This document shows positions 44,227 through 64,000 of a stretch of DNA of 64,000 nt, one piece after another. The notes under the pieces are model-generated. The model did no database searches, was not told the DNA's origin, and saw only the letters and a program-made list of their open reading frames with translations. The stretch is from Deltaproteobacteria bacterium (lineage in GTDB: Bacteria; Myxococcota; B64-G9), in contig JAUXGL010000001.1 of NCBI GenBank assembly GCA_030622135.1, positions 601 to 64,600 on the forward strand, read 5' to 3'. Each line of letters opens with the position of its first letter. Position 1 is the first letter of the stretch. Position numbers and translations under genes: made by a program.

Positions 44227-44417
44227 TAAAATCTCGCCCGGCCATTATATACACCCGAACAGGGAAATCAATATCGCCCTCAGCCCATAATCTCCCAGCC
44301 CATTTCCGGTCGATCCCAACACCCTTTTCGGGCATTACCGGTGAATTGGGGTGGGTCCTAGAGAAGTTGCATCCTCCCGAGGGATTGCCTATAATTTCTT
44401 GGGATTACGTGTAGTTG

Positions 44418-46778
44418 ATGAAGGTGGTGAGGGTGGCGAACGAATCAGACGATCGTCGGGGGCATTTGCGTGTTCCCGTGAACTTGCTGGTGCGGGTCAA
44501 GTACGAGCAGGTGGGTGAATTCATGGTTCACTTTGCCACCAACATCAGCTCGGGCGGGGTATTTCTCCAGAGCCGGAAGCCCTACAAGAAGGGAACCCGT
44601 CTACGCTTCGAGATTCGGCTGAAGGGCGGGCAGACGATCCTGCGGGGCGAGGGGGCGGTGGCCTGGTGCCGTGGACCTTCCGAGGGGGAGGATAAGCCCC
44701 AGGTGCCGGGTATGGGGGTGAAGTTTGTCGCCCTGGACGATGCATCGAAGGTCCTGGTCAGAAAGATCCTCGAGATCAAGGCGGGCAAGAAGGCAACGGC
44801 GAAACCAAAACCAAAACCAAAACCAAAACCTGCCCCAGTGGACGTAGACATCGACATAGACATCGACGTGGGGGCAGAGGTTCCCGCACCCGAACAGAGT
44901 CCGACCGTCGAGGTGGGCAACGGTTTGGAGGTAGAGGCGCGGACGGGTATCGAGGTGGATATCGACGTGGATGTGGACGTCGAGGAGCCCGACGATTTCG
45001 ACGTGGACATCTCGGTGGACGACTTCGTGGATCCTGCCGAGGATCAGGTAAAGGCTGCCCGGTCGCCCACCGGGGGGGGATCCTCGCGCGTCATCGGGAT
45101 CGACCTGGGCACCACCAACTCCTGCGCTGCGGTGGTGATCGACGGAAAGCCCAAGGTGATTCCCTCCCGCAAGGGATACCGCACCATTCCCTCCATCGTG
45201 GCCTACGCCGACGACGGCCGCTTACTGGTGGGGCATTCGGCCAAGGCGCAGATGGAGTTGAACCCGCGAAACACCGTTTATAGCTCCAAGCGCCTGATCG
45301 GCCGCTCCTTCGATTCCCAGGCCGTGCAGCAGATGAAAAGCCGGTTCCACTACGAGATTATCGAGGGGCCCAAGCACGAGGCGGCCGTCCGGGTGGCGGG
45401 AAGGACCTTCAGTCTGCAGCAGGTGGCCGCGTTCATCCTGACCGAGATCCGCGACATCGCGCGTGACCTGCTCCAGGAAGAGGTAAACCGGGCGGTGATC
45501 ACCGTGCCGGCCTACTTCAACGAAAATCAGCGCGAGGCCGTGCGCGAGGCGGGCATCCTGGCCGGCCTCCAGGTGGAGCGTATCATTAACGAGCCGACGG
45601 CGGCGGCACTGGCCTTCGGGTACGACCGCGGCCTGGATCAGAGGATACTGGTGTACGACCTCGGTGGCGGGACCTTCGACGCCACCGTGCTCGAGCTGTG
45701 CGGCAACGTATACGAGGTGGTGTCCACCGGCGGCGACACCTTTTTAGGCGGAGTGGATTTCGACAATCAGCTGGTCGACTACCTGCTAGACGCTTTCTGT
45801 CGGGACATGGGTACGGTTCCCCAGTTGGACCGCTCTGCGGTGCAGCGGCTGCGCGACGCCGCCGAGCAGGCCAAGTGTGCCCTGAGCGAGAAGGAAGAAA
45901 CCATCGTCAGGATCCCCTTCTTCGCCGCAATCGATAACACCCCCAAGGACCTGGAGGTGCGCGTCACCCGGGTGCTTCTGGAGGACATGGTCACTCCCCT
46001 GGTGGAGCGGACCATGTTGGTGGCCACCAACGTGCTCGAGCAGGCCAAGCTGCGGCCCAAGCAGATCAACAACGTGCTGCTGGTCGGCGGACAGAGCCGC
46101 ATGCCGCTAATCTGGCGCCGGATCAAGGAGCTGTTCGACCGGGATCCCCACAAGGGTGTTCATCCCGACGAGGCGGTGGCCATCGGGGCGGCCTTGCTGG
46201 CCAATTCCCAGGGCAAGATCGACAGTGTGGTTCTTATAGATGTCCTGCCGGTGAGCATCGGAATCGGAATCCCCGGCGGGCGCTTCATGCGGGTGCTCGA
46301 GGGCGGGACCGCCCTGCCCACCACCAAGACCTACACGATCCGGACGTTCAAGGACGACCAGGACACGCTGGAACTAGCCGTTTTTCAGGGAGAAAGCGAC
46401 CGGGTGGTGGACAACGAGTACCTGGGGACGATGACCATATCCGGCATCACCAAGGCCCCCAAGGGTGCTGTGCAACTGGAGATCACCTTTTCCCTCGACC
46501 AGGAATGCCTGTTGAAAGTATCTTCCCGGGAACTTCAGTCGGGAAAGATCACCGAGACCCAGATGGGCGTCAAAGATACAGAGGACATCATTCGCAAGAA
46601 GCTCAAGATCCCCGAGAGCGAGATCAGCATGCGGAAGTACGGAGTCCCCCGATCGTTACGCCAGGCCGATAAAAAGCAACCGGTTGTTAGGAAGCAGCCG
46701 GGAGAAAAGGAGACAGAGGGGGAAAACTCCAAGGAAAAAGGAGGGCTTCTGGGTAAGCTGTTCGGGCGCAAGAAATAG
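44418..46778 (+). CDS. PilZ-domain / Hsp70 (DnaK-like) fusion protein with low-complexity KP and DVDID linker
   Basis: N-terminal PilZ-like ([14 protein letters not shown]...ISSGGVFL, RxxxR...D/NxSxGG). Linker (KP)n and (DID/DVD)n. From [12 protein letters not shown] onward, Hsp70 NBD motifs (DLGGGTFD) and an SBD-like region. Confidence 0.8.
44803..45010 (+). repeat. Coding microsatellite-like repeats (aaacca)n and (gacatc/gacgtg)n inside the PilZ-Hsp70 linker
   Basis: aaaccaaaaccaaaaccaaaacc and gacatcgacatagacatcgac / gtggatatcgacgtggatgtggacgtc seen directly. Confidence 0.7.
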
Positions 46779-49193: not shown

Positions 49194-49448
49194 TTTCGTT
49201 CCTCCTTCGGTTCTAACTACAGCAAGTCCCATGCCAACTCTGTTTTCCTTTCTAACGGGTCATGAAAAAAAGGAAACTGTGGTTCCCGCGCTGCTCCGCC
49301 GCGGCGGAGTTGCCAGATTTTTCATGCGATCTTCCAGTTTGGAACATCGGGAGGAGCCGTTTTGTGGCCCCCCAGGATCTTTCACCCAGACTTGACCGGC
49401 CCGTTTTATAGGCAGTACACTGCTTGCAAAGTCATTGAGGAGGTTGCC

Positions 49449-51176
49449 ATGCGCACGCTGTTCTTGGGAGTTCTTGTATCGGGGTTAGCACTTGCCGGCT
49501 GTCCCGCCGGGCCGGGAGCGGTTAAAAAGGAAGAAAAGATGGAGACGAAAGTGGAGAGTACTGCCGAGGTGGAGGCTAAGCTGAATGCGTTTATAGAAAA
49601 GCACGTGGCCCGGGTGGCTCCTTTGCAGAAAGAGCTGAACCTGGCGTCTTGGGATGCCTCTACAACCGGAAAGAAGGAATCCTACGAGCTGTCCAGCCTA
49701 AAAGAGCTGGAGATTATGAAGGTGTACTCCGATCCGGAAGCGTTCAAGCTAATCAAAGAGATCAAAGCCGGTGGCCAGGTCAAGGATCCCCTATTAAAGC
49801 GCCAGCTGACCGTTTTGTACCTGGGCTTCGAGGAAAACCAGGTTCCGGCGGAGCTTTCGGAGAAGATGGTCAAGCTCTCCACCGAGATTAAGAAGACCTT
49901 CAACGACTACCGCGGGACCGTGGGGGGCCGGCAGGTCACCGACAACGACATCTACGACATTCTCAAGTCGTCGACGGATTCAAAAAAGCGCCGGGAATGC
50001 TGGGAGGCCTACAAGCAGAGGGGCGCCCTGGTGCGGGACCGGTTGATCGAGTTGGTACGCCTTCGCAACCAGGCGGCCAAACAACTGGGGTACCGGAACT
50101 ACTACGAGATGCACCTGACGCTCATCGAGCAGGACCCGGCGAAAATCCGCTCCATCTTCGACGAGCTGGCCCGGCAGACCGACGGGCCGTTTAAAAAACT
50201 CATGGAGCGGATTAACCGGAAGTTGGCGGCCCGGTACGGTATTGAGCCTGAGCAGTTGAGGCCCTGGCATTACGAGGACCCCTTTTTCCAGGAGGTACCC
50301 ACCATCGGCAAGGTGGATCTTGATTCGATGTTTTCAAAAAGCGATCCCCGGGTTCTGGTCAACGGTTTCTTCAAGGGGATCGATCTGGATCCCGCCGACA
50401 TCCTGGACCGCTCCGACCTCTACGAAAAGAAGGGCAAGATGTCCCACGCCTTCTGCATCCACATCGATCGGAAGGGCGACGTGCGCATCCTGTCCAACTT
50501 GAGAAACAGCGAAAGATGGACTGCCACCCTCATGCACGAGATGGGCCACGCGGTATACGACAAGTACATCGACCGGAATCTACCCTGGCTGCTGCGCGAG
50601 CCCTCCCACAGCTTCACTACCGAGGCGATAGCCGAGCTCTTTGGTCGCCTGACCCGGAGCCCCGGCTGGCTCGTAAAAACGCTTAAGATTCCCGAAGAGA
50701 AGATCGGGAAGGTGGCCGAAGACATTCGCTTGCAGTTGCGCATGAACATGTTGATCATGGCTCGTTGGACCATGGTCGTGGTCAACTTCGAGCGCGAGTT
50801 GTATGCGAATCCCGAGCAGGATCTCAACCAGCTATGGTGGGACCTGAAGAAGCGCTACCAGTTGCTCACCCCGCCTGAAAGTCGCAGCGCTCCTGACTGG
50901 GCCTCCAAGATCCACTTCGCCGTCTGGCCGGCCTACTACCACAATTACATACTCGGTGAGCTGATGGCCAGCCAGCTGCTCGATCATGTCGCCAAAGAGA
51001 TCGTAAAGACCGACGATCCCGCCGGGATCGACGGAGTCGGCCAGGTCGAGCTGGGCCGCTACCTGAAGGAGAAGATCTTCAAGCCGGGCAAGAGCCTGCG
51101 TTGGGACCAGCTACTCATCCAGGCCACCGGCGAATCGCTCAACCCAAAGTACTTTTCCGAACAATTCGTGAAGTAG
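49449..51176 (+). CDS. M2-like (ACE-type) zinc metallopeptidase lipoprotein
   Basis: Preferred ATG 49449 (GAGGAGG RBS); lipobox LALAGC; HEMGH zinc motif in ACE-like context (LMHEMGHAVYDKY) and downstream Glu (EAIAELF). Confidence 0.7.
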   Translation: MRTLFLGVLVSGLALAGCPAGPGAVKKEEKMETKVESTAEVEAKLNAFIEKHVARVAPLQKELNLASWDASTTGKKESYELSSLKELEIMKVYSDPEAFKLIKEIKAGGQVKDPLLKRQLTVLYLGFEENQVPAELSEKMVKLSTEIKKTFNDYRGTVGGRQVTDNDIYDILKSSTDSKKRRECWEAYKQRGALVRDRLIELVRLRNQAAKQLGYRNYYEMHLTLIEQDPAKIRSIFDELARQTDGPFKKLMERINRKLAARYGIEPEQLRPWHYEDPFFQEVPTIGKVDLDSMFSKSDPRVLVNGFFKGIDLDPADILDRSDLYEKKGKMSHAFCIHIDRKGDVRILSNLRNSERWTATLMHEMGHAVYDKYIDRNLPWLLREPSHSFTTEAIAELFGRLTRSPGWLVKTLKIPEEKIGKVAEDIRLQLRMNMLIMARWTMVVVNFERELYANPEQDLNQLWWDLKKRYQLLTPPESRSAPDWASKIHFAVWPAYYHNYILGELMASQLLDHVAKEIVKTDDPAGIDGVGQVELGRYLKEKIFKPGKSLRWDQLLIQATGESLNPKYFSEQFVK

Positions 51177-51240
51177 GCTACGGGTCATCCCGCCACTCGA
51201 CCCTGATGTGGTTTCCGTTCTTGTCTTTGTAGACCCGACC
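51174..51240. repeat. Left copy of 67-bp imperfect direct repeat (duplicate of M50 protease gene 3' end)
   Basis: 62/67 identity with 53521..53587. The five mismatches fall mostly at codon third positions of the protease reading frame. Confidence 0.85.
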
Positions 51241-51271
51241 CCATTTTTCGACCTTGAATATGCGCACGGAT

Positions 51272-52252
51272 CTATATCCCCAGAATGCGGCCGATCGCCT
51301 TGGCTAGATCGGTAAACTCCTTGCGAGCCCTGGCCACAGCCTGAATCTGTCCACCACCGATTCCGTCGGCCTGCTTGAGATCGAAGATTGGCTTGCGAGC
51401 TTGCTGTGCGAGCGGCACCAGGCTCGCGAAGTGTTTCAGCAATGCGATGCAATGGGGGTCCCTGTCCACGCTCGCTGGCCAGCGTTTCTCTGGTGTCTGG
51501 AGCACCTCATGGTGGAACACTGATGGGATCTGGCTCGCCCAACGCTGGTACCCGCGCACAGGTCTGTCCGACCGTGCAAGGTGCTGCTGTACGATGTACC
51601 CTCTTGGCAGGAACTCATGCGCAACCGGGCGTGGATCAGTCCGCTCGGCGGCGCGCTGCCAGTCTTTGCGCCAATCCCTCATCACAGGTCCCACGTTCCG
51701 GAGCCCCTGGAGGCTGAACAAATCCGGAGCGACCGGCAGGATAACCACGTCTGCGGCCAGGAGCGCTGCCCGGTTGAGCGCCCCCAGGTTGGGTCCGACG
51801 TCGAGCAGCAGCACATCGGCTTCGACCTTCTCCGCGGCGATGTCCGCAAGCCGCTGCAGGGCAGTAGCCACGTGGAGAGCCTTCTCATTGTCAGATTGAT
51901 GGATCTGCCCCCAGCTCTCCGCCAAAGGCTGCTCGAACCGGCCCAGCGCCAAGTCTCCAGGAAGAACCCAAAAATCATCGGCGATCTGGACCGGGGCTGG
52001 ATCCACGATGTCGCCCTTGCCGCGGCGGACCAGATCGATACACCGGGCCACGGTCGTCCCTCTAGGATCTTCAGACTCCCAGAGATCGACGAGACTCTCT
52101 TCGCTGAGACAGATGGCGGACAAGTTGCACTGGGGATCGTAGTCCAAGGCGATCGTCTTGAATCCCTGGCGAGCAAGTATGTGAGCGATGTTGAAGGTCA
52201 GGGTGGTCTTTCCCACTCCGCCCTTGTTGTTGAACAGGACAAGCGATTTCAA
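51272..52252 (-). CDS. ParA/MinD-like P-loop ATPase with C-terminal extension
   Basis: 326 aa; deviant Walker A NNKGGVGKTT; 4-nt overlap with upstream AlbA_2 gene. Confidence 0.75.
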   Translation of the reverse strand: MKSLVLFNNKGGVGKTTLTFNIAHILARQGFKTIALDYDPQCNLSAICLSEESLVDLWESEDPRGTTVARCIDLVRRGKGDIVDPAPVQIADDFWVLPGDLALGRFEQPLAESWGQIHQSDNEKALHVATALQRLADIAAEKVEADVLLLDVGPNLGALNRAALLAADVVILPVAPDLFSLQGLRNVGPVMRDWRKDWQRAAERTDPRPVAHEFLPRGYIVQQHLARSDRPVRGYQRWASQIPSVFHHEVLQTPEKRWPASVDRDPHCIALLKHFASLVPLAQQARKPIFDLKQADGIGGGQIQAVARARKEFTDLAKAIGRILGI

Positions 52253-53442
52253 GTATGACTCCGAATTGTGATGACCGTGTAGCCATCCGTCCTCACTTCG
52301 AACGGCGGGTTGCCATTTTTTTCTAGAAGTCGGCGCACCCGTTGGATGCCGCGACCCAGGCGCTCGACATATCCCAACTCGACCAGCAGGTTGGTGATGG
52401 TCGGATTCCGGTAGTCGGCCTGATCCCCGAATTCACCCTCCTTGGCCTGGCCATACGGACCACCCGGGTTGTAGAACTCGATCCGATCCTTGAACCAATT
52501 AATTCTGCCGGGCGCGTTCGTCCCCTCGTACAGCCTGTGCTGGACCTGGTTCCGCGCAAGCTCCCTCAGAGCCTCGACCGGATACTCCGGCGGGTACGGG
52601 GTTCGGATTCCCTGCTCCTTGGCCACCACCTGCGAGTTGTTGGCATTCAACTGAGCCCAGATGGTCTCCAGTTGGTCACACAGGTCTCCGGTGATGGTGC
52701 GTCGGCTTGTCACGGTCGAATCGACATCGACGCCATCGTAGCGCGCGAACTCCACGAGCGCCCCTGGCAGGTAGGTCAATGGATCCACACCGTACACGAG
52801 GACCGCGGCAGTGGTGGGCACCCAGATTCCGTCCACCAAGCGGGCCAGGTTCTTCTGCCCAAGCCATTTCTCGAACTCGGGGAAGGTCTGGTCATCCTCG
52901 TCCGAGTGCCGGGCGACATCGTACCGCTCCCGGAGTTTGCGCAGCGCCAGGGCGCCCAGGTCTGACCCGCGATGCGGCCTGATATCGAAGGGTTGACGAC
53001 CCTCGGGACGTCGTTCGTTTAATCGGACTCGATCTGCCTCGGTGGCTCGTTGGGTCGAGGTGCCCACTCGCACCCAGGGAACACCATTGACCTCGACCAC
53101 GGGCGGAACGGGATATGGCTGGACGCGGACCACGAGTATTTCACAACCAGCGATGTCGGCCTTCTGCACCCCGAACGAAGGGTTGGGGAGAATCTTCGTA
53201 GATTTCAACCTGTTGACAACTCTCTGGATGGCTTCGTCGGAGGCATCCGTCCCGACAGGTTCGCCCCTCTTGTTCACTCCGATGAGAATGACACCCGGAC
53301 GCCCACTGTCGCCGAGGTCGTTGGAGAAAGCGCATGCGGACCTGACCACGTCGTCGCTATCCGATTCTTTCCACTCAGACCATTCGCTCTCGCCAGCCAA
53401 GGCTTCTTTAACTATGGCCAGTATTTCGCCCGCTCCAGACAT
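52249..53442 (-). CDS. Schlafen-like AlbA_2 + HATPase_c_4 (RecG-C-terminal-like) putative DNA-binding ATPase
   Basis: 397 aa; N-terminal AlbA_2-like (EWKES...SACAFSNDLGDSGRPGVILIGV); C-terminal GHKL-like segment (ALRELARNQVQHRLYEG...RIEFYNPGG). Confidence 0.7.
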   Translation of the reverse strand: MSGAGEILAIVKEALAGESEWSEWKESDSDDVVRSACAFSNDLGDSGRPGVILIGVNKRGEPVGTDASDEAIQRVVNRLKSTKILPNPSFGVQKADIAGCEILVVRVQPYPVPPVVEVNGVPWVRVGTSTQRATEADRVRLNERRPEGRQPFDIRPHRGSDLGALALRKLRERYDVARHSDEDDQTFPEFEKWLGQKNLARLVDGIWVPTTAAVLVYGVDPLTYLPGALVEFARYDGVDVDSTVTSRRTITGDLCDQLETIWAQLNANNSQVVAKEQGIRTPYPPEYPVEALRELARNQVQHRLYEGTNAPGRINWFKDRIEFYNPGGPYGQAKEGEFGDQADYRNPTITNLLVELGYVERLGRGIQRVRRLLEKNGNPPFEVRTDGYTVITIRSHT

Positions 53443-53520
53443 ACAGGAATTGAACCAGTTTTTTCAACTTCGAGCAAGGATCTAGACATTGGTACCCCGT
53501 TTCTTAGGCTCCCGTTGGGG

Positions 53521-53587
53521 TAGGCTACGGGTCGTCCTGCCACTCGACTCTGATGTGGTTTCCGTTCTTGTCTTTGTAGACTCGACG
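53521..53587. repeat. Right copy of 67-bp direct repeat = authentic 3' end of M50 protease gene
   Basis: Encodes ...VYKDKNGNHIRVEWQDDP* on the minus strand. Confidence 0.85.
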
Positions 53588-54364
53588 GGTCCCTTGTGGG
53601 GGCGCCGGTTGGTCGGGGTCGAGGATTTCCCAGTCGGTGCCGGGAACCCGGAAGCCCGCCGACTCGGCGAAGCGCCGGAAAGGATCGAGCACCGGGCGGG
53701 TGTGCCGCGGGGCGTCCTGGTAGCCGGGATCGCCCAGGTACTGCCGGGCCCGGGCGGCGCCTTCCTCGGCGAAGGCCAAAAACAGCAGGAAAGCGGCCAG
53801 CACCAGGAACCACCCGGAGTAGATCACCCCGAAGACGGCCAGGGCCATGGCCAGCCAGCGAGCCACGCGGGCCGCCACGGTGGTGGCTCGGTAGAAGCCC
53901 ATCTTTCGGGCCAGGTAGGCCCGAAGGATTCTCCCTCCGTCCATGGGCAGGGCGGGTAGCAGATTGAAGGCGCCCAGCATCAGGTTGATCTTGGCGAGGA
54001 GCCAGAGCGTGTAGTTGCCGGTGAGCCAGGCGGCGACGCCGATGGCAACCGCCAGGATCAGGCTTACCGCCGGGCCCGCGGCGGCCATGAGGATCTCGTC
54101 GCGAGTGGTCTTCGGCGCGGACGTCATTCGGGCCATTCCCCCGAAGGGATACAGGGAGATGTCCATGATTTTCATTCCCAGCGAACGGGCCGCCAGGGCA
54201 TGTCCAAGCTCGTGCAGAATTACCGAGATGAATACGGCGATCGTTACAACCAGGCCGTACACTCCGCCTCCGGTGAAAAGCACTATCGCCAGGAATATCA
54301 GTAGGCTAATGTGCACCCGGATGGGGAATCCAAAGATACTGCCCATGTAGTACGACCAACGCAT
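53525..54364 (-). CDS. Site-2 protease family (M50) zinc metalloprotease
   Basis: 279 aa; HELGHAL zinc motif in TM helix, multiple TMs, LDGG motif. Confidence 0.8.
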   Translation of the reverse strand: MRWSYYMGSIFGFPIRVHISLLIFLAIVLFTGGGVYGLVVTIAVFISVILHELGHALAARSLGMKIMDISLYPFGGMARMTSAPKTTRDEILMAAAGPAVSLILAVAIGVAAWLTGNYTLWLLAKINLMLGAFNLLPALPMDGGRILRAYLARKMGFYRATTVAARVARWLAMALAVFGVIYSGWFLVLAAFLLFLAFAEEGAARARQYLGDPGYQDAPRHTRPVLDPFRRFAESAGFRVPGTDWEILDPDQPAPPQGTRRVYKDKNGNHIRVEWQDDP

Positions 54365-54505
54365 CTTTTCTCCTGCCCCTATAATGTAAGGCCTGGGGGT
54401 AGGATTTCAAGGGCTATTGGAGGGACAACGTCGTTTGTTTTTCATCTTGCTTGTCCCATTTGGACATGTTAGACAAAACGACTCTTTGTTTGCGGGAGAT
54501 CTTGC

Positions 54506-55951
54506 GTGGACGAGTCAGAGCGGGACCAGCCGGAAAGCGATATAGACGAGGCGGAGCGGGCCGAATTCCTGGCGGCCATGCAGCAGGAGATCGAGGTTGC
54601 TCATGCCGGGAGCGGTGAGATTGTCACCGGCGCCATTATTTCCATCGGCTCGGATTTTGCCTTCATCGATCTGGGCACCAAGAGCGAGGGGGTCATCTCG
54701 GTCGAGGAGATCCGGGAGGAGGACGGCTCGCTTCCCGCCGTGGGGGCCGAAGTAGAGGCCTGTGTTCTTTCCTCCGGGCCCGATGGCCTGATTCTTTCCA
54801 AGCGTCTGGCCAAGGGGATCCGTGACCGGGAATTCCTGCAGGAGGCGGCCCGCAACCGCATCCCCGTCGAGGGGAGGGTGGTGGGAAGAAATAAGGGCGG
54901 ATTCGAAGTGGATGTGGCCGGGTTGCGGGCCTTCTGTCCCGTGGGGCAGATCGAGCTGCGCTTTTGCGAAGATCCCGACGTGCATCTGAACCAGAAGCAT
55001 GCCTTCCTGATTACCAAGTACGACGACAGCGGGCGCCGGCCGGACGTGGTGGTTTCCCGCAAAGAGCTTCTGCAGGCCGAGGCGGACAAACTGGCCGAAG
55101 AGCTGCGCGAGACCCTGAAAGAGGGCGATGTGGTTGCCGGAACGGTACGGGCCATCAAGGACTTCGGTGCCTTCGTGGATCTGGGAGGGCTGGAGGGGCT
55201 GCTGCATGTCTCCGAGTTGTCGCACCAGCACGTCGACGATCCCAAGGAGATGTTGAAGGTGGGCGAGGAAATCCATGTGCAGGTGCTGTCCATCAAGCCG
55301 GGAGACCGGATCTCGCTGAGTCTCAAGAGGCTGGAGGCCGACCCCTGGGACGATGCCATGCTCTCCTTTCCGGAGGGGAGCCGGGTCCGCGGCAAGGTGG
55401 TGCGACTGCAACCCTTCGGTGCGTTCGTGGAACTGGTGCCGGGAGTGGACGGACTGATTCACGTCTCGAACTTTAACTCGCCCGAACGGGTGGGACATCC
55501 CCGGGAGGTACTCGAGCAGGGCCAGGAAGTGGATGTCGAGGTGCTGTCCGTTGATCCCCAGAACCGCAGGATCGGCCTGGCCCGGGTGCCCTCCGACGGA
55601 GAGTTCGGCTCCATTCCCGTGGTGGGAGCGGTGCTGGAAGGCAAGGTGGACAAGGCGGTCAACTTCGGGGTGTTTGTAACCCTGGGGCCCGGTCGCAAGG
55701 GCCTGGTTCCTAACATAGAAATGGGCACATCCAAGGGAGCGGACCACCGCAAGCAGTTCCCGCCGGGCACGCCCATGAAGGTCAAGGTGCTGGAGGTGAC
55801 CGACAACGGCCGGAAAATCCGGCTCAGCCTCAAGGCGGCCCGGGAGGCGCAGGAAAGGGCCGAGTTCGAAGGATATGTTCAACAGGACGCCAAGGATTCC
55901 TCCGGTGGTTTCGGTACCCTGGGGGATATCTTGAAAAAGAAGATCACCTAG
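54506..55951 (+). CDS. S1 RNA-binding-domain protein (ribosomal protein S1-like, several S1 repeats)
   Basis: GTG start; at least five S1-like repeats (G.V..I..FGAFV.L..G..GL.H.SE). Confidence 0.8.
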   Translation: MDESERDQPESDIDEAERAEFLAAMQQEIEVAHAGSGEIVTGAIISIGSDFAFIDLGTKSEGVISVEEIREEDGSLPAVGAEVEACVLSSGPDGLILSKRLAKGIRDREFLQEAARNRIPVEGRVVGRNKGGFEVDVAGLRAFCPVGQIELRFCEDPDVHLNQKHAFLITKYDDSGRRPDVVVSRKELLQAEADKLAEELRETLKEGDVVAGTVRAIKDFGAFVDLGGLEGLLHVSELSHQHVDDPKEMLKVGEEIHVQVLSIKPGDRISLSLKRLEADPWDDAMLSFPEGSRVRGKVVRLQPFGAFVELVPGVDGLIHVSNFNSPERVGHPREVLEQGQEVDVEVLSVDPQNRRIGLARVPSDGEFGSIPVVGAVLEGKVDKAVNFGVFVTLGPGRKGLVPNIEMGTSKGADHRKQFPPGTPMKVKVLEVTDNGRKIRLSLKAAREAQERAEFEGYVQQDAKDSSGGFGTLGDILKKKIT

Positions 55952-55998
55952 CGTAGGTCTCAGGCAGACGCTGTGTCTAACCACACAGGGGAGACAAC

Positions 55999-56496
55999 AT
56001 GGTAAACCCGAAGATACAGATCAAGACCAACTTGGGCGACATCGAGGTGGAGCTGGATGCGGGGAAAGCTCCCCTTAGCACGGCGAACTACCTGCAGTAT
56101 GTAAAAGACCGGCACTACGCCGGCACCGTGTTTCACCGGGTGATCCCCGGCTTTATGGCTCAGGGCGGTGGTTTCGACAAGAGCTTCAACCAGAAGCCCA
56201 CCCGTGACCCCATCAAAAACGAAGCCGAGAACGGCCTGAAGAACCTGCGCGGCACCCTGGCCATGGCCAGGACCAACGAGGTGAACTCGGCCACCTCCCA
56301 GTTTTTCATCAACCTGGCCGACAACTCCTTTTTGGACAACGGATCGCGCGACTTCGGCTACGCCGTTTTCGGCAAGGTGACCGGGGGCATGGACGTGGTC
56401 GACAAGATTGCAGAGACGCCCACCGGTTCCAAGGGCTCTTTCTCCAAGGACTGTCCTCAATCAGACGTTGTCATAGAGTCGGTTGAGACCCTGTAA
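55999..56496 (+). CDS. ppiB: Peptidyl-prolyl cis-trans isomerase, cyclophilin type (cytoplasmic)
   Basis: 165 aa; [27 protein letters not shown] cyclophilin signatures. Confidence 0.9.
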
Positions 56497-56510
56497 GCAA
56501 GGAGACGATC

Positions 56511-57095
56511 ATGAAAAGGCTCGCTATCGTTATCGCGCTGACCGCATCCGTCCTGTTTGCCGGCACCGCCCTGGGCGCCGACAATAAGGCCGCCAAGAAG
56601 GGCAATCCCGCGGTGGTGATCAAGACCAGCATGGGGACCATCGAGGCGGTTCTTTACAAGGACAAGGCTCCCATCTCGGTAGAGAACTTCCTCAAGTACG
56701 TAGAGGACACGCACTACGACGGTACCATCTTCCACCGGGTCATCCCCAACTTCATGATTCAGGGTGGCGGCTTCAATGCCAAGTTCAGTCAGAAGAAGAC
56801 CCGCGACCCCATCAAGAACGAGGCCAAGAACGGCCTGAAGAACGAGCGCGGCACCTTTGCCATGGCCCGCACCAGCCAGGTCGATTCGGCTACCTGCCAG
56901 TTCTTCATCAACCTAAAGCACAATAAATCCCTCGACAACGACGCCCGCGGCTTCGGCTACGCCGTTTTCGGCAAGGTGACCCGGGGCATGGACGTGGTCG
57001 ACAAGATTGCCAAGGTCCAGACCGGCGCCAAGGGCTCTTTCTCCCGCGACTGCCCCAAGGAAGACATCACCATCGAGTCCGTCCGCGTAAAGTAG
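56511..57095 (+). CDS. ppiA: Peptidyl-prolyl cis-trans isomerase, cyclophilin type (secreted)
   Basis: 194 aa; signal peptide [23 protein letters not shown]; cyclophilin signatures. Confidence 0.9.
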
Positions 57096-57236
57096 GCCCT
57101 TGGTGAGGGCACATCGATAACAGGTATTCGATATTGCGCTTGTTGGTCTGACCTACGCCGCAAACGGCGCGGAAGCTGACCCTGGGGCCACCGGCCCGGC
57201 CAGCCAAGAGCCCGCTTCCGGCAGACGACGGCTTCT

Positions 57237-57548
57237 TTGCCGATCCCGTCCGAGTTCGACTGCATGGATGAGCCGCCCGTGGTCGAGGAGAAAACTCGGG
57301 ACAAAAGCAAAGAGGTCTGGCAACCCAGGAGCCTCCCGGACCTGCTTGAACATTTCGAAGTGTTTGAATTGTCTCACAACAAAGTTGAATCGTTACCAGC
57401 CTCCGAGGCTAACGTATCATCCCAAGAGGCAATTGGAAAATCATGTAAAAGAATTTGGCCTTTTGTGGCAACAATGATTTCAGCTGTCTTGGGTATCCTA
57501 GGAATTTTAGTTTGTTGTTTAATCAATTTGTTAAGATACCAATCATAA
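57237..57548 (+). CDS. Possible small C-terminally membrane-anchored protein spanning the GC-rich to AT-rich junction (doubtful)
   Basis: 103 aa; first ~20 codons have host-like high GC3, the rest lies in AT-rich DNA; C-terminal TM WPFVATMISAVLGILGILVCCLINLL. May be a disrupted host ORF fused to island DNA. Confidence 0.25.
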   Translation: MPIPSEFDCMDEPPVVEEKTRDKSKEVWQPRSLPDLLEHFEVFELSHNKVESLPASEANVSSQEAIGKSCKRIWPFVATMISAVLGILGILVCCLINLLRYQS

Positions 57549-57998
57549 CCTACATTTCGCAAGTCACGGAGGGTGTTCTGGGGAGAATTTCCTCGTACTA
57601 TGATAGAGGGTCCATCAGGCGTAGACTGACGGGTCCATGTCGAGGAGACGGAGGAGTTGTTTTTGTATACCAGAGAGCTCGATAGGAAACGTGGCCATCT
57701 CTTTTCCTCTTTCGAAATCATACCAGCAGACGTCGCTGAACTGAATGTCATTTCGAGGAGCGCAGCACGGTGTCGTTGACCCCTAGGTTCGGTCGAGGAT
57801 GCCGGCAGGGGCGGAGTGTGCCTGGATTCACGTCTTTTCTCGTAGTCGTGCCTGAGATTGTCGTCGCTGGGCTTGATTCATAAGGTTGAATCGTGGTCTG
57901 TTTCCAAATTGGAACTCGATGGAAGGAGTGACTCGGAGGAAAAGGTCCTTTATTACACCTATCCCTTACGCCACGATTATCTGACGAAGGGGTTGACC

Positions 57999-58649
57999 AT
58001 GAAGAAAAAGCGCAAACTAAACATTCTTGTGTCTTCGGTAGTGTATGGGTACGAAGACCTGCTGGAGAGCGTGTATTCGCTCCTGGAGACCTTCGGATAC
58101 AAAGTGCTCATGTCGCATAAGGGCACCGTGCCGATCGATCCGGACATCTCGGCAATGACCAGTTGCCTGGAAGCGGTCAAGAGGTGCGACCTATTCCTTG
58201 GCATCATTCTGCCACGATATGGATCAGGGAAAGAGCAGAAAGGCGGTCTGTCCATAACCCATCGCGAAGCACTGCACGCCATCAAAATGAACAAACCCCG
58301 CTGGTTTCTTGTCCATGAGCACGTTGCCATCGCCCGCCAGCTTCTTGATCCGTACCGCGACGAGACGAAGAAGCCAGAGTTCAAACTCAAACGTGGCACC
58401 ACTTTCAAGTCGACGTCGATCCTTTCCGATTTGCGCGTCCTTGAATTGTATGAAGCCGCCATGCGGCATAACGTGCCCGAGATCGCACACCGCAAAGGGA
58501 ACTGGGTGCAGTCCTACGGGCCGGACGACGATGCGCGTCTCTTCGCCACGGCGCAGTTCCGTCGCCACAGGGAATTGGCTGAGAAGTACCTGCCCAAGCT
58601 GGAAGACACGGGAGCGATTCGGGATCGGGTAGAGGGATGCAAATCATGA
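57999..58649 (+). CDS. DUF4062/TIR-like small protein (candidate defence effector or sensor)
   Basis: Preferred ATG 57999 (MKKKRKLNILVSSVVYGYEDLLESVYSLLETFGYKV...). Pattern hydrophobic-ISS...DL.E.R/ES...L, flavodoxin-like size, resembles DUF4062 as remembered. Overlaps the next gene by 13 nt. Confidence 0.55.
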   Translation: MKKKRKLNILVSSVVYGYEDLLESVYSLLETFGYKVLMSHKGTVPIDPDISAMTSCLEAVKRCDLFLGIILPRYGSGKEQKGGLSITHREALHAIKMNKPRWFLVHEHVAIARQLLDPYRDETKKPEFKLKRGTTFKSTSILSDLRVLELYEAAMRHNVPEIAHRKGNWVQSYGPDDDARLFATAQFRRHRELAEKYLPKLEDTGAIRDRVEGCKS

Positions 58650-60028
58650 GATCTGACGTCCTCCATGTGATCGAGAACGGGGAGTCCGAGACCGCTGAGT
58701 TCAAGAGTTCTCGCAGTTCGTTCGAGGCACTTGCACGAGCCGTCTGCGGGATGCTCAACCAGCAGGGAGGTGTACTTCTTTGGGGTGTCGATGATACCGG
58801 GCAGCTGACGGGCGTGGAAGATGCCGAGGCCCAAGCAGAGGACCTGACGCACTTTCTGATGCGTCACATGAACCCACGCCCCTTGCTTTCCGTCTCGGTG
58901 CATGAGGCCAAGGGCAAGCCGATCATCATGGTTGATGTGCCCTCGGGTTCGGACAAACCATACTCGCTGGGCCGGCAGATTTTGGTCCGCATCGGGAGCA
59001 GAACGATGCGCGCCGGTGTGGACGAAAGTGCGGCTTTGGTGGAGCAGAGCGCGATAGAGCTGGAACGCTGGGAGCGTGAACCCATGCCCGGCTTTGCGGT
59101 GGAAGACTGCGATGTTGATGAGCTTGAGAAAGCAAGATCCGAGATCGCGCAAGCAGGGCGATTCGGAATCGATGCTCCTGCGAGTGACGAAGAACTGTTG
59201 CAACGTCTCTATCTGTGGCGCAACGGACAGGTCACGAATGCCGGTGTTGTCCTTTTCGCATCTCAACCGCGCATGTGGGTGCCTAACGTCTTCGTGCGTG
59301 TTGTGTCCTACGCTGAAGGCAAGGCTGGGCCCATCGCCAACGATGTGATCGTGGATGGTCCAGCCGTCCGATCTCTGCGTGAGGTCGTGACAATCATTCA
59401 GCAACGCACCGGTTTCTCCGGTAGGTTCGTGAAGGGCAAACTGAAACGCGAAGATCGGCCTGCGTATTCCGTGTTCGCCCTGAGGGAGGGACTGGTGAAT
59501 GCCATCACTCACCGGTCTTACGAGGTCATAGGCGGCAGTGTGTGCGTGGAGATATTCCCAGATCGTCTCGTCATCCGCAATCCGGGCAGACTGCCGGACG
59601 GGTGGACAGCACAAGACCTGCGACGCGTGCACGGGTCGCATCCATTCAACCCGGACATTGCCCAAGTGTTTCTCCTGCGCGGGCTGATGGAACAGCTTGG
59701 GATGGGGACACAGAAACTGATGGCCGCGTGCAAGGAACTGGGCGCCAAACTGCCGGTTTGGCGCGTCGAACAGGGCACTGTGGCACTGACGATCTTCCAG
59801 GCACCCGAACCGGAGGCGGCAGACGTGCTGACAGGGCGTCAGGCCGAATTCGTTGGCTCGCTGATGGCTGGAGCTGAGTTCAGAGCTGCCGATTATTTGA
59901 GCGCTACCGGTATGAGTGAGCGCCAGGGGCGGCGTGACCTGGCTGAACTGGAGAAACGGGGGATCATCGAACGCCACGGCAAGGGACGGGCCACGGTGTA
60001 TAGACGGACTGACGGGGGTCGCTCATGA
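58637..60028 (+). CDS. Schlafen-like AlbA_2 + HATPase_c_4 + C-terminal wHTH protein (RecG-C-like putative regulator/ATPase)
   Basis: 463 aa; AlbA_2-like (ETAEFKSS...LARAVCGMLNQQGGVLLWGVDDTGQLTGV), GHKL-like (NAITHRSYEV...VCVEIFPDRLVIRNPGRLPDG), wHTH (DYLSATGMSERQGRRDLAELEKRGIIERHGKGRATVYRR). Same layout as 52249..53442. Confidence 0.7.
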   Translation: MQIMRSDVLHVIENGESETAEFKSSRSSFEALARAVCGMLNQQGGVLLWGVDDTGQLTGVEDAEAQAEDLTHFLMRHMNPRPLLSVSVHEAKGKPIIMVDVPSGSDKPYSLGRQILVRIGSRTMRAGVDESAALVEQSAIELERWEREPMPGFAVEDCDVDELEKARSEIAQAGRFGIDAPASDEELLQRLYLWRNGQVTNAGVVLFASQPRMWVPNVFVRVVSYAEGKAGPIANDVIVDGPAVRSLREVVTIIQQRTGFSGRFVKGKLKREDRPAYSVFALREGLVNAITHRSYEVIGGSVCVEIFPDRLVIRNPGRLPDGWTAQDLRRVHGSHPFNPDIAQVFLLRGLMEQLGMGTQKLMAACKELGAKLPVWRVEQGTVALTIFQAPEPEAADVLTGRQAEFVGSLMAGAEFRAADYLSATGMSERQGRRDLAELEKRGIIERHGKGRATVYRRTDGGRS

Positions 60029-60324
60029 TGCCAGTCCGGCCAAATCCGGCCAGAATCGGCCACCCCCTGAATGTCCACCTTAGCCGGTGTTGTAACCCAT
60101 TTCCGAGGTGTGCTGCGTGCCCCGCAATTTGTTACAGTGCACGCAGTTACGGCGACTGCGTCGCGAAACCAACAGAATTCGGCCAAATCCGGCCACATTC
60201 GGCCACGTTCGGTTTACGCACGAAGGGCAGATCGCGAACGCAACGAGAATCTGACCCGGATTACACCGATGACACGACTTGGCGCCTCCATTGACGAGGG
60301 CCGTCTGAACGGCTGGTTGGGCTA

Positions 60325-61029
60325 CTACCGGCTGGACGCTTGGCGAATAGCTTGCGGTTGAGCGGGGATGCGGGCGATGACCAGGGCCAGGGTTTCGTCT
60401 TCGGACAGGCGCCAGAAGATGTCCGGCCGGGCGCCGTCTCTGGATTTCACCACGGCTTTCTTCCAGGTGCGGGAACCGGTCGGATCTAGGGAGAGGACGT
60501 TGACGCTCTTGGTGCTCTGGTGGAATCCGGTTCTCTGGGCCTTGAGCACGGCTTCCTTGATGCACCAGATCACCGTGCCGGCTTTGTGCTTCCAGTCGTC
60601 GGGGAACTGCTCGATCAGCTCGCGCTCCTGGTCGGTGTAGAAGTCCTCGTAGAAGTTCCGCGACCGGTCCGCCACCACCTCGATGTCCGCGCCGACGGTT
60701 CCCTCCTGGTCGGGGCAAACGGCGCACAGGGCCCGTTCGCCGGAATGAGAGATGGAGAGCGAGACCGGGAGGTGGGTTCCCTCGATGGTCAGGGGTTGCG
60801 GCCAGCCGTCCGGCGCCCGTTTGATGTGGATGAGTTTTTGCGGGGGCAGGTCTAGGGCCAGGTCGCCGGCGGTTCGTTCCAGCAGGGTCTTGGCGGCGGC
60901 TCTTCCCAGCAGCCACTGGCGGTAGCGTCCCGGATGGCGGTAGCGCCGGCCTTCGTGGACCTCAAAGAGGCATAAAAACTCTTGATCGTTCAGCCCGGGC
61001 CCGGGTCTGGCCAGCAGCCAGCGGATCAT
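60325..61029 (-). CDS. 4'-phosphopantetheinyl transferase (Sfp/PfaE-type)
   Basis: 234 aa; GADIEVV and [10 protein letters not shown] PPTase motifs; 4-nt overlap with the upstream PKS gene. Confidence 0.75.
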
Positions 61030-64000
61030 TGGTCTTCTTCTTCGGGTTCCAGCCCGGAGCGAACATCGTTCGGAAGCGCATTGGGCATTGGCGATGTGCG
61101 GTAGCCGTCGAGCTCCACCAGAACGAAGCCACGCTCGTCTACCACCTGGATTCCGTATTGGCCGTGATTGCCGCCGTTCTGCGGAACCACATGGGCGGTA
61201 ACCTTACCGCGATCGCCCTCGGGGACGCGATTGATCTTCATCTTGCGGACTCCGGCGGGAAGACCGAGCTTGTTGCTGGAGGAGGCCTCCATGATCCCGG
61301 CCGCCTGGAAGGCCAACTCGGTGAACATGGGGGCCGCGGAGAGGTTGCCCGGCTTGGCCAACGGGGGCAGCTCCGTTCCGGAACGCATCCAGCCGGACAT
61401 TTTACCGTTACCGTTCGCGGTCACCTTATCGAGCACCTGGAAGCTGGGGCCGTGGAAGTACGCTCGGTAGATGGCTTCCCGGCTGATACGGCGGGTGTCT
61501 CCATTTCCGGGTGGGTCCATCCGTACCTCGGGCATGTCCACGTCCAGGCGTACCTTGGCACGAAAATGGCGGGTGGTCTGCTGCTTTCCGCCATGCAGGT
61601 TGCGAGTGGTCTCCATGGTTGCCAGAAACAGCCGGCCCTTTCCGTCCCAGGTGGGCAGCATGCGCACGGTGGCCGTGCGGGGCTCGTCTCGGTAGAACTT
61701 CAAGGGTGCGTCGAAGGACAGATCCTCGATGGCCACCACGGTCAGGTCCGGGCGCATCAGGCCGGCGGCCTCGGCGAAGGTCTCGATGGCCATCACCCCG
61801 GGCAACACCGGTAGCCCGTCGATGCGATGATCGTCCAGGTAACGGTCGCGTGACGGATCGAAGCCGACCCGGAGGCGCAGCCCGTCCGCCAGGGTCCAGT
61901 CCAGCACCTCGCCGAGTAGCGGAAAGCGTTTCGGGTTGTCGGTGAGCCGGCTGCGTATGATCTGCATGTCTACGCCTTCCAGTCTCAGGCTCTCGGCCAG
62001 TAGGCCCAGGGAGCGCGCCACCACCAGCTCTCCCGAGTGTCCGCTCGAGAACACCCGGCGCACGGACGTCGCGCCCTCCCGCTGGGGGATCAGGTTGATG
62101 CCGACGGCGTCCAGTTGCTTGGGCACCGACCCCCGCGTGGCCATACCCACGCCGTCCCAGCCGCTGAATGCCAGGGTGAACACCTGCAGGTCGGGGCGAG
62201 TGCGCTTCAGGTAGGTCGTGGTCTTGGCCATCAGATCGTTGGCGGCCGAGTAGTCGGTCTGCCCGGCGTTGCCGAAGCGACCGGCGACGGACCCGAAGAG
62301 CATGATCCCCTTGACCGGTACGTTCCGGGTGGCGCGGAGCAGGGAATGGAGCCCGTACACCTTGACGCCCAGGATGAGATCGAAAGATTCCCGGGTCTTC
62401 TTGGCGATGCCCTGGCTGTGCTCCAGCCCGGCCGCGTGCAGGATCAGATCGATCCGCCCGTGGGCATCTTTGATCTTTTGCACGGCCCGGGCGGTGGCTT
62501 CCGCATCCGTCACGTCGAAGGCCAGGGAATGAGCTTCGCCGCCCTGTTTTCTCACGTTCTCCAGGTTCGAAAGCGCCGCGGCCTTCCGTTCGACCTGTCG
62601 CAGCGCCTTCTCCACCTGGACCGGCGTGACCCGTTCACCCTGTTGTTTCATACGCTCGATGAGCGTCGCTTTCAGGGCATCCCGGTTTTCGCGCAGGGCC
62701 AAAACGTCCGGGTCGTCCTGTGGGGGAGCCGGAACCAGATCGGCCAGGTAGTAAGTGCCGCCGAGATGTCCGGCCAGATCGCCGGCGATCTGACCGGTGA
62801 TGTCGCCGGCCCCGCCGGTGATCAGGACCACCGGATTCTTTTCCAGTGGGGCCTGTTCGTCGGGAACAAACTCGCTTAGCCCCACGCCCCAGCGACGGAT
62901 CCCCCGCCGGCCCACTTCCACGACTCCGCCGTCGCGCTCCGCCTCTTCGACTAATGTGGTTGCGATTGTGCTCGCATTCACGTCTTCGGGCAGATCGACC
63001 ACCTTGCAAAGCGTCCGGGGCCACTCGCGGGAAAGTGCTTTGACCAGCCCGGTGGTTGCGCCGGACGCCGGATCCAGAGACCCTCCGCCCGGACGTAGTC
63101 CCAGGTGTCCACCCATCCGGGTGGCACACACGAAGAAGCCGCCTTCCGTATTCGAAAGATGCTCGTCAAGTACCTGGGCTACCCTGAAGGGCATACGTGC
63201 CCGTCGATCGATAGCGCTCTTGAATGCCTGGGTATCCTCGGTGTCCGGCGGCACCGCATCGGAGAGCGCCGAAAGGATCCAGACCCCTTTCGGCGGCCCG
63301 GCCTGGCATGCTTGCCTGATTCTCTCGGCCACGGCGTCCGGATCGCCGGAGTCATCAATCCGCAGCGGATCCCCGCCCCGCACCCGCAGCGCTTCTTCGA
63401 TCGCCGCGGCCGCACCGTTAAAATCACCGATGATGAACGACCGGCCGGCGGGATTCACTCCGGTGGGCAAACACTCCCGGGCCCGCGGCCTCCCCACCAA
63501 CACCGGTGCCAGATACCGCATCGATTCCGACTCCGTCGCCACACTGTCCAGCGGTTCGATCGTCGGCGCGCCTTCTTCCGGCTCTTTTGGGTCTTCTTTT
63601 GCGGGTGTCGTTCCCATCTTGTCTTGTGCAAACTGGATGACATGATTGAGCGTAGGATATTCCGACAGTTTCAGGTCGTCCTGCTTGGGGATGTTGAAGG
63701 CCGCTCGCACCTCCGAGAACATCTCGGCCTGCTTGACCGTGTCGATGCCCAGATCCGCTTCCAGATCCAGATCGAGGTCGAGCATATCCGTAGGATAACC
63801 GGTCTTATCGGAGACAATGGCCAGGACCTTGTCCTTGATCGCTCCTATATCTGCTTTGGGGCGATCGGCTTCAACCCGGTCGCTTTGTTGTTTGCTTTGT
63901 TGTTTGCCGTCCTGTTTTTTAGGGCCTTCCTCGCCGGCTTGAGGGTGAACCTGAACGTTGACGGTCTCTTTCTCAGGCTCTTTTGCGGGCGCGTCCGGCG
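61026..64000 (-). CDS. PfaA-like PKS/PUFA-synthase C-terminal part: ACP - ketoreductase - PKS-type dehydratase (N-terminus beyond window)
   Basis: Reading frame is open to the window end. ACP motif [14 protein letters not shown]; KR ([16 protein letters not shown]); DH ([11 protein letters not shown] HxxxGxxxxP, HGPSFQ). Confidence 0.75.

Follow-up and report, generated by a model that had tools for sequence, protein, structure and literature searches.

The question raised by this locus is why two divergent members of one protein family should lie close together in a single stretch of DNA, each joined to a different partner gene, and whether such pairs are functional units or casual neighbours. 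The window analysed here is the whole stretch of 64,000 nt (positions 601 to 64,600 of contig JAUXGL010000001.1, assembly GCA_030622135.1, from a deltaproteobacterium placed by GTDB in the Myxococcota). It contains two genes, A1 and A2, each encoding a Schlafen (SLFN_AlbA_2) domain followed by a GHKL-type ATPase domain (HATPase_c_4). Directly downstream of A1 is P1, the gene for a ParA-like ATPase, and directly upstream of A2 is P2, the gene for a small DUF4062 protein. Both pairings are conserved operons. The reading judged probable here is that they represent two independent, horizontally acquired modules, most likely anti-phage systems of the abortive-infection type, working by the mechanism proposed below.

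An earlier note, made from the letters of this stretch alone, had described A1 and A2 as sharing domain order while being clearly divergent, and closer analysis agrees. Both proteins exceed the Pfam gathering thresholds for PF04326 and PF13749, in that order (A1: residues 18-133, 54 bits, and 313-390, 58 bits; A2: residues 16-125, 73 bits, and 299-386, 64 bits). Aligned by BLASTP they show 25% identity across 373 residues (E=4e-14), and judged by this alignment they are homologous over their whole length, yet clearly divergent. The A1 family has a length of ~395 aa and 52-71% identity across many phyla, the A2 family a length of ~460 aa and 51-66% identity. The nuclease motif of A1, ESEWSEWK (E18/E23/K25), has the form Ex4ExK and is invariant in 30/30 family members. 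Its A2 counterpart, ESETAEFK (E13/E18/K20), is intact in the window copy and relaxed in the subfamily, with E13 present in 28/28 sequences, E or D at position 18 in 21/28, and K20 in 21/28. Within the GHKL domain, E294/N298/H302/R303, NPG and GxG are conserved in the A1 family, while E281/N285 and the H-R, N-P/S-G and GxG positions of A2 are invariant or nearly so, the N-P/S-G and GxG lid being common to both families. From the motif, rather than a direct alignment, E294/N298 of A1 and E281/N285 of A2 would be equivalent to E314/N318 of RzAgo. A2 has a third domain that was absent from the earlier note, a C-terminal winged helix-turn-helix (wHTH) with helices at 397-437 and a two-strand wing, as predicted by AlphaFold (mean predicted local distance difference test score, pLDDT, 83.6). 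The best fold match of this model is 3LMM (DIP2311 of Corynebacterium diphtheriae), followed by SLFN12/11, the SAMD9 tRNase domain, histidine and BCK kinases, and wHTH proteins. The start of A2 is most likely the ATG at 58646, because an identical database protein (P0121) has 460 aa and because this start gives an ATGA overlap of 4 nt with the P2 stop codon.

The two partners differ in kind, as the earlier note had said, and each is translationally coupled to its neighbour through a 4-nt overlap, that between the A1 stop and the P1 TTG start being TTGA. P1 has a deviant Walker A motif (KGGVGKT, residues 10-16), which like D151 is near-invariant in 38 homologues, and a C-terminal extension of ~130 aa that matches no family. 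It scores below the cut-off of every NCBIfam ParA/MinD model (65 bits vs a cut-off of 180 for ParA_partition). Its best sequence match in the PDB is 3pg5, an uncharacterised protein, followed by Soj/ParA, with ParF also among the matches. 3PG5 is probably DIP2308 of C. diphtheriae, the same organism as 3LMM; this would put ParA-like and Schlafen-GHKL-like genes close together there too.

P2 scores 56.0 bits against PF13271 (DUF4062; cut-off 24.7) and has no sequence match in the PDB. Its start is most likely the ATG at 57999, because homologues are 202-231 aa long and an AAGGGG Shine-Dalgarno-like motif lies upstream. Homologues of P2 are 68-81% identical, and its C-terminal region of ~110 aa is conserved. 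In the motif S85-I-T87-H-R-E90, S85, T87 and E90 are shared by all 13 locus homologues; S85 and E90 remain invariant in an alignment of 44 sequences, where T87 does not figure among the listed invariant or near-invariant positions. By analogy with the motif as the papers on Evangelion and Swarozyc describe it, E90 is the putative catalytic Glu. The structural model of P2 is of low confidence (mean pLDDT 64), and its top Foldseek matches are nucleoside 2-deoxyribosyltransferase, DNPH1, TIR-STING, plant TIRs and SARM1, at template modelling scores (TM-scores) of 0.3-0.56. Fold matches of this kind are also reported for DUF4062 in the literature.

Evidence that the pairs are units comes from their conservation. 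The A1-family alignment was scanned against one genome per GTDB species, which gave 56 loci, 55 of them with downstream DNA. A P1-related ParA-like gene (43-73% identity) starts 0-30 nt past the A1 homologue in 45/55, and this order occurs in Acidobacteriota, Planctomycetota, Myxococcota, Chromatiales and others. Strains that carry A1-P1 include Sorangium cellulosum So ce26, Corallococcus sicarius CA040B, Thiocapsa sp. KS1, Halochromatium roseum DSM 18859 and Thiorhodococcus mannitoliphagus DSM 18266. The same 4-nt overlap is seen in independent gene calls from Thiocapsa and an Acidobacteriota genome. A ParA-like neighbour is lacking in a Thermoanaerobaculia/Holophagales (Acidobacteriota) clade and in the two most distant matches; the solo members within the family alignment (P0010, P0020) retain the nuclease residues. 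For the second pair, a DUF4062 gene (43-77% identity to P2) lies directly 5' of every A2 homologue of at least 34% identity that has upstream DNA, a sample covering metagenome loci, three genome contexts and one Hymenobacter plasmid. In the reverse direction, three P2 homologues were picked since their contigs were missing from the A2 match list, and in each case a Schlafen-GHKL gene comes next, overlapping by 4 nt. The distances between partners co-vary (Mantel r=0.77 for A1-P1, n=38; r=0.93 for P2-A2, n=13; the observed value is reached in 0/999 permutations). P1 and P2 are each more strongly conserved than the Schlafen-GHKL protein that they accompany, a pattern that suits an internal protein-protein interface better than it would a rapidly evolving phage sensor. 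A P2 homologue or DUF4062 partner is present in none of the 56 A1-family loci, so the closeness of the two pairs in the window, which the earlier note had treated as a feature, is not a conserved arrangement.

The idea of a modular family with exchangeable partners is upheld by the ParA-like and DUF4062 pairings, and further by distant relatives, which adjoin different partners around the conserved core. Among distant Schlafen-GHKL relatives from a metagenome scan (22-31% identity), 10/51 have an upstream gene for an ATPase of ~900 aa (AAA_21/SMC_N/AAA_23), and PADLOC recognises these ATPases by its 'Ppl' model (E=1e-43 to 1e-54). Further relatives adjoin a UvrD-PD-(D/E)XK helicase-nuclease, ResIII, GmrSD, Eco57I-type enzymes, DUF1156 plus a methylase, or type I HsdR/HsdS. 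The five upstream proteins listed in Table 1 are further candidate partner modules; four match 'Ppl' (an ABC-type ATPase) and one resembles a GajB/UvrD-Cas4-like helicase-nuclease.

Table 1. Positions of the features discussed. Those without a locus handle are in the window; those with an L number refer to the locus so named.
Feature	Position	Strand	Remarks
Direct-repeat copy 2	51173-51239		Remnant duplicate of the last 20 codons and stop of the M50 peptidase gene; downstream edge of cassette 1
P1, ParA/MinD-class P-loop ATPase	51272-52252	-	326 aa, TTG start; Pfam AAA_31 87 bits, CbiA 53 bits
A1, Schlafen nuclease domain and GHKL ATPase ('Schlatpase'), without HTH	52249-53442	-	397 aa; Pfam
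Direct-repeat copy 1	53520-53586		Functional 3' end of the M50 peptidase gene (53525-54364, -); upstream edge of cassette 1
P2, small DUF4062 protein (NIR, TIR-like NADase family)	57999-58649 (open reading frame 57858-58649)	+	216 aa; Pfam DUF4062
A2, Schlafen, GHKL ATPase and C-terminal winged HTH	58646-60028 (open reading frame and alternative start 58637)	+	460 aa; Pfam, AlphaFold
Repeat array 1	60033-60063	+	Three tandem copies, period ~10 bp, GTCCGGCCAA ATCCGGCCAG AATCGGCCAC; starts 5 nt past the A2 stop
Spacer between arrays	60064-60169		106 nt; sequence not conserved among loci, length roughly so
Repeat array 2	60170-60213	+	Three to four copies, AATTCGGCCA AATCCGGCCAC ATTCGGCCAC GTTCGG; orientation and motif as array 1
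Flanking duplication, L007	4832-4996/7599-7761		
Flanking duplication, L022	5629-5754/8453-8578		
Flanking duplication, L032	1376-1449/4292-4365		
Flanking duplication, L065	5615-5910/7200-7495		
Protein of ~900 aa, L081	1063-3894		Directly before a distant Schlafen-GHKL gene
Protein of ~900 aa, L111	3287-5992		Directly before a distant Schlafen-GHKL gene
Protein of ~900 aa, L116	169-2868		Directly before a distant Schlafen-GHKL gene
Protein of ~900 aa, L120	2436-5162		Directly before a distant Schlafen-GHKL gene
Protein of ~900 aa, L138	3035-5866		Directly before a distant Schlafen-GHKL gene

The second pair has an additional, non-coding component. Two arrays of short direct repeats follow A2, and four of the ten exact matches to WTYCGGCCA in the window fall within 60044-60205. 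The core [CT]CGGCCA occurs six times in ~170 nt vs six other forward-strand matches in the 12 kb scanned (52000-64000). The same two-array layout is present in 13/13 distinct P2-A2 loci, each array consisting of 2-3 direct repeats on the coding strand with a period of 10-11 bp; array 2 starts 98-153 nt after array 1. The repeat motif differs among loci (CCGGCC, CCGGAC/TCGGAC, CAGGAC, CTGGTC, GGGCTCA) and is identical in both arrays of one locus, where it is rare elsewhere and never clustered upstream of P2. The arrays are the sole DNA similarity between the flanks in the window and other loci, and the spacer sequences cannot be aligned across loci. Around the HTH-less A1-P1 pair no repeat arrays recur (45 loci). 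In a small sample the wing of the wHTH varies with the repeat, reading Y(R/H)R in 6/7 CCGGCC loci and YVRT or YERT in 4/4 CCGGAC loci. This co-variation, together with the co-location, suggests that the arrays are putative cognate DNA sites of the A2 wHTH.

An RNA role for the arrays is unlikely, though it has points in its favour; they would then serve as a 3' untranslated region (3'-UTR) element, bound or cleaved by the Schlafen domain as a decoy or antitoxin-like RNA, or would lie on either side of a small transcript. Array 1 begins 2-40 nt past the stop codon, or within the last codons (L073, L151), and since both arrays lie on the coding strand in every case, leaving no space for a terminator, they must be transcribed; Schlafen domains, moreover, bind and cut RNA. 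The strict period of 10-11 bp, however, is that of one DNA helical turn, and the arrays are missing where the Schlafen-GHKL protein has no HTH. Nor is there conserved pairing, the GGCC/CCGG palindromes being lost in the CAGGAC, CTGGTC and GGGCTCA variants. Structured RNA in the spacer and arrays was a candidate and is rejected, with no Rfam match at E<=1 and, for nine spacers on both strands, minimum free energy z-scores of -2.1 to +0.95 and no consistent signal.

Several smaller features of the array region may be recorded here. In L151 (~7010-7036) and L073 (~3040-3066) the A2-type reading frame runs through array 1, so that the C-terminal tail consists of translated repeats, e.g. RSIRPNPAKSGQG. 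One inverted copy of the locus repeat lies inside the spacer in three loci (L148 D+68, L150 D+92 and L010 D+63, relative to the A2-type stop), and short GC hairpins occur 10-25 nt before array 2 in several loci, in the window as GCGACTGCGTCGC (~60139-60151). An open reading frame (ORF) of 89 aa at 60025-60294 was considered as a third gene and is probably spurious, because its sole similarity, to a 96-aa ORF in L148, consists of translated DNA repeats and it has no other homologue. A scan of 57000-60400 for promoters and terminators gave counts at the level of shuffled controls. Just past the arrays, the opposite strand (60325-63785) carries a gene for a 4'-phosphopantetheinyl transferase and a polyketide-synthase-type gene with ketoreductase and dehydratase (KR-DH) domains; there is no plus-strand gene that the arrays in the window could control.

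Both pairs bear signs of acquisition. The earlier note had placed them in accessory segments, and for pair 1 this is borne out by a 67-nt direct repeat (94% identity, spacing 2347) that bounds it exactly. Between the two copies are 2280 bp (51240-53519) consisting of A1, P1 and 109 nt of non-coding DNA (77 + 32 nt), without a recombinase or integrase. The remnant copy abuts the stop codon of a convergent M2/M3-type peptidase gene (49362-51176, +). Before the insertion, the M50 (-) and M2/M3-type (+) peptidase genes would have been convergent, with stops 1 nt apart (GTAGGCTAC, 51174-51180). Imperfect flanking duplications of 29-296 nt (87-95% identity) likewise bound the module in L007, L018, L022, L032, L033, L065 and L067, and in L007 repeats of 165 nt enclose P2, A2 and both arrays as one unit. 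The duplications copy flanking host sequence, often the 3' end of a gene, with no recombinase inside. Such a pattern is compatible with a Campbell-type event in which a circle with a segment homologous to the target was integrated, and suggests a homology-driven or otherwise unusual route of cassette insertion. For pair 2 in the window no flanking direct repeats were found. Upstream of P2, the GC content of a low-GC stretch (57300-57700) is 0.37-0.47 over 57300-57600, vs ~0.60, and this stretch is probably the edge of an acquired segment. Neither of its two ORFs has a homologue in any fetched locus, and one of them, a minus-strand ORF of 125 aa (57374-57751), has no Pfam match.

The genomic surroundings of the two pairs differ, and here the expectation of the earlier note, that the layout is typical of defence systems, stands for one pair and is weak for the other. 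The neighbours of 12 P2-A2 loci match 298 PADLOC families, among them type I methyltransferases (E down to 1e-289), PglX (1e-291), GajB (1e-148), type IIG enzymes and PrimPol; Pfam annotation of the same loci adds numerous toxin-antitoxin genes as well as an integrase, GmrSD and SNF2/DEAD helicases. Some P2-A2 loci adjoin PglX-like or type I/IIG restriction-modification (RM) genes. A2-type proteins are encoded on 26 PLSDB plasmids, and the P2-A2 pair occurs beside tra genes on a Hymenobacter plasmid. Plasmid NZ_CP110140 of the cultivable Hymenobacter sp. YIM 151500-1 carries a copy at ~84.2-87.1 kb.

A number of observations weigh against the interpretation of both pairs as anti-phage modules. 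The neighbours of 17 A1-P1 loci match far fewer PADLOC families, and only once or twice each (PtuA, MADS, type IV restriction endonuclease). The A1 family has no relative in PLSDB plasmids, and no relatives turned up in IMG/VR viral contigs scanned with the alignments of two of the four families, P2 and A1. For defence genes, the A1 and P1 families show unusually high conservation (50-70% identity across phyla). Metabolic and housekeeping genes fill the rest of the window, which is no defence island. PADLOC v2 has no P2 model, and A1 and A2 are matched only by models associated with prokaryotic Argonaute (pAgo). The defence role of both pairs is a prediction, and the HisKinase-type Schlafens tried in E. 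coli did not protect against the panel of phages with which they were challenged (PMC13056530). As to the arrays, their place downstream rather than upstream of the operon is atypical for an operator, and their necessary transcription makes an RNA-level role possible. Their generality is likewise only suggested: unrelated 10-11-bp repeats lie at the stop codon of distant Schlafen-GHKL genes with an HTH in 14/50 long vs 2/18 short proteins, a difference that is not significant (p=0.2), and the arrays are not accepted here as a general trait of such genes.

Part of this evidence would also suit a non-immune role for A1-P1, for example in RNA turnover or in nucleoid-associated regulation through ParA-type positioning, with only the second module serving defence. 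The scarcity of defence genes near A1-P1, its absence from the plasmids and viral contigs scanned, its high conservation across phyla and its recurrence beside PspA/AAA genes in Acidobacteriota all point this way, and 30% of prokaryotic Schlafen genes have no defence neighbours (PMC13056530). Such a role is nevertheless rather improbable, given that the distribution of the pair is patchy and does not follow taxonomy, that it has been inserted as a cassette with target duplications at several loci including the window, and that the nuclease triad typical of immune tRNases is invariant.

The claim of the earlier note that this domain pair had not been described is superseded by papers of 2025-26 (PMC13056530; 10.64898/2026.05.29.728809; PMC12839542; PMC13462974). 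Schlafens are a known anti-phage family, and SLFN-HisKinase (34%) and SLFN-HisKinase-HTH (19%) are the commonest of 55 prokaryotic architectures; 70% of prokaryotic Schlafen genes are near defence genes, and an Ex4(E/D)xK motif and phage-triggered tRNA cleavage, the latter for other architectures, are reported in the same text (Perez Taboada et al. 2026, PMC13056530). The unit of SLFN and PF13749 has been named the 'Schlatpase' supradomain, present in 58.6% of 103,533 prokaryotic SLFN proteins and reported to be exchanged between pAgo, NACHT and RM systems, with ATP-driven tetramerisation of the GHKL domain by means of an E/N Mg-ATP pair (10.64898/2026.05.29.728809). Forms with a wHTH (SLFN-HisK-wHTH) occur beside bacteriophage exclusion (BREX) systems in at least 1017 taxa, as well as beside RM and type I CRISPR systems, and have been termed 'backup effectors' (PMC12839542; PMC13462974). 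Three preprints of 2026 have shown DUF4062 to act as a TIR-like NADase effector, the systems being Swarozyc, Evangelion, Avs2-NIR, Vulcan and Vesta (10.64898/2026.05.01.722283; 10.64898/2026.06.25.731849; 10.64898/2026.09.04.749371). According to the same texts, Swarozyc, Evangelion and Vulcan, like the published Schlafen systems, act as single genes. The searchable text of these papers, figures and supplements apart, mentions no Schlafen partner for DUF4062, no ParA-type partner for Schlafen and no downstream repeat arrays, and pairings of a Schlatpase with ParA or with DUF4062 are absent from PADLOC.

Compared with these systems, A1 and A2 share with the Schlatpase class both Pfam domains in order, the Ex4(E/D)xK motif and the GHKL E...N motif, A2 having in addition a short C-terminal HTH and relatives that are likewise tied to defence islands. 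They differ in that the published forms, as far as the accessible text goes, are single-gene systems, fused effectors or accessories of BREX, RM or CRISPR, without a dedicated ParA-like or DUF4062 partner or arrays. A2 belongs to the same three-domain class as the Schlafen-minimal HisK-wHTH proteins associated with BREX, RM and CRISPR, but the constant neighbour of its subfamily is DUF4062 and not a BREX or RM core gene. P2 resembles the DUF4062/NIR systems in its small size, N-terminal DUF4062 core, invariant Glu in S-x-T-x-x-E, C-terminal auxiliary region, and occurrence in defence islands and on a plasmid. The auxiliary region of those systems is diversified, whereas that of P2 is highly conserved, and the P2-A2 locus carries repeat arrays. 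Swarozyc, Evangelion and Vulcan have no partner, whereas the P2 subfamily never shows their solo layout, a Schlatpase-wHTH gene always coming next, mostly with the 4-nt overlap. Vesta is likewise a two-gene operon in which the small NIR protein comes first, but its partner is an alkaline phosphatase instead of a protein with SLFN_AlbA_2, HATPase_c_4 and wHTH domains. P1 shares the deviant Walker A and a fold-level signature with the ParA/Soj/MinD ATPases; unlike ParABS, it has no ParB or centromere partner or repeats, and its sole conserved neighbour is A1, an RNase-ATPase. Gabija, PARIS, Septu, Lamassu, OLD and Ppl likewise combine a nuclease effector with an NTPase that acts as sensor or switch, but P1 is of the SIMIBI-class ParA type and not of the ABC/SMC type, and its nuclease is a Schlafen RNase with its own GHKL ATPase.

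The mechanism proposed here draws on the published properties of the parts (Schlafen, GHKL, DUF4062). In module 1 (51240-53519), A1 with its strictly conserved nuclease triad would be the likely effector, and P1 an ATP-dependent dimerising switch, probably DNA-associated, that either detects the trigger or controls A1. P1 is no required antitoxin; in one clade A1 occurs without it and is still catalytically intact. Module 2 (~57300-60213) would combine the NADase P2, the Schlatpase-wHTH protein A2 and a cis element made of the two arrays. Oligomers of A2 may be parked through the wHTH on both arrays, with the co-translated P2 held inactive; an infection cue would free or rearrange A2, whose ATP-driven oligomerisation would then cluster the TIR-like domains of P2 and lead to NAD+ depletion. 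Where the Schlafen triad is intact, as in the window, A2 may also cleave tRNA.

If the pairs were toxin-antitoxin or addiction modules that stabilise cassettes, the A1 RNase and the P2 NADase would be the toxins, P1 and A2 would neutralise them or autoregulate, and the arrays would be an A2 operator. Modules of two coupled genes, without integrase and set among housekeeping genes, are what one would look for in this case; A2 has a predicted DNA-binding domain beside cognate-looking repeats, as in type II antitoxins, and PIN, HicB, BrnT, RES and PemK genes are frequent neighbours. The putative antitoxins, however, are large enzymes (ATPases of 326 and 460 aa) with conserved ATPase motifs rather than small labile proteins, a whole clade tolerates A1 with its catalytic triad and no P1, and the arrays are downstream of the operon with none upstream of P2, not at the promoter. 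A toxin-antitoxin nature is thus improbable, and in any case the toxin-antitoxin and abortive-infection roles are not mutually exclusive. Most improbable is that P2 and A2 are self-sufficient single-gene systems brought together by the clustering of defence genes, with P1 an unrelated ParA, for while the published DUF4062 (Swarozyc, Evangelion, Vulcan) and Schlafen systems work as single genes, P2 has the layout of Swarozyc-type proteins (DUF4062 core and C-terminal auxiliary region) and an Acidobacteriota/Thermoanaerobaculia clade has A1 without P1, the linkage is near-obligate both ways, the 4-nt overlaps are kept across phyla, partner distances co-vary, in L007 one pair of repeats surrounds P2, A2 and the arrays together, and P1 and P2 are more conserved than the Schlatpase, as fits an internal interface.

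More tentatively, and with rather less confidence than is given to a defence function, pair 2 may be an undescribed three-part immune module, in which an ATP-driven Schlafen oligomer, tethered to cognate repeats where its own gene ends, controls a TIR-like NADase, and pair 1 a second undescribed system of Schlatpase and ParA-type ATPase, both spreading as integrase-less cassettes bounded by imperfect duplications of the insertion site. As far as checked, the two near-obligate operons, the double repeat array and the duplication-flanked cassette structure are new. Schlafen-GHKL proteins make up over half of the prokaryotic Schlafens; for the stand-alone forms neither a trigger nor a regulator is known, and those tried alone were inactive. 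Two subfamilies with obligate, co-evolving partners, one of them with cognate repeats, provide testable hypotheses for how Schlatpases are controlled, and suggest that earlier single-gene tests may have missed a required component. The DUF4062/NIR family is extended to a new sensor partner, which joins Schlafen and TIR-like effectors, two types shared with eukaryotic immunity. The recurrent duplications also indicate movement of small defence-type cassettes without an integrase.

Elsewhere in the window, PADLOC matches one large ORF outside the pairs (PDC-S01, E=5.5e-85); there is no BREX or RM match among the other 42 large ORFs, and the 64 kb contain no BREX, RM or CRISPR genes. The four genes between the pairs are of housekeeping type, for the M50 peptidase, ribosomal protein S1 and two cyclophilins. 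The latter are tandem genes for cyclophilin-type peptidyl-prolyl isomerases (55999-56496 and 56511-57095) with 71-80% DNA identity at an offset of 599 bp (repeat families D1, D2 and D5), the second having an N-terminal extension of ~30 aa. Further upstream, the gene at 44415-46778 encodes an Hsp70/DnaK-type protein (787 aa) whose N-terminus carries a fused PilZ domain.

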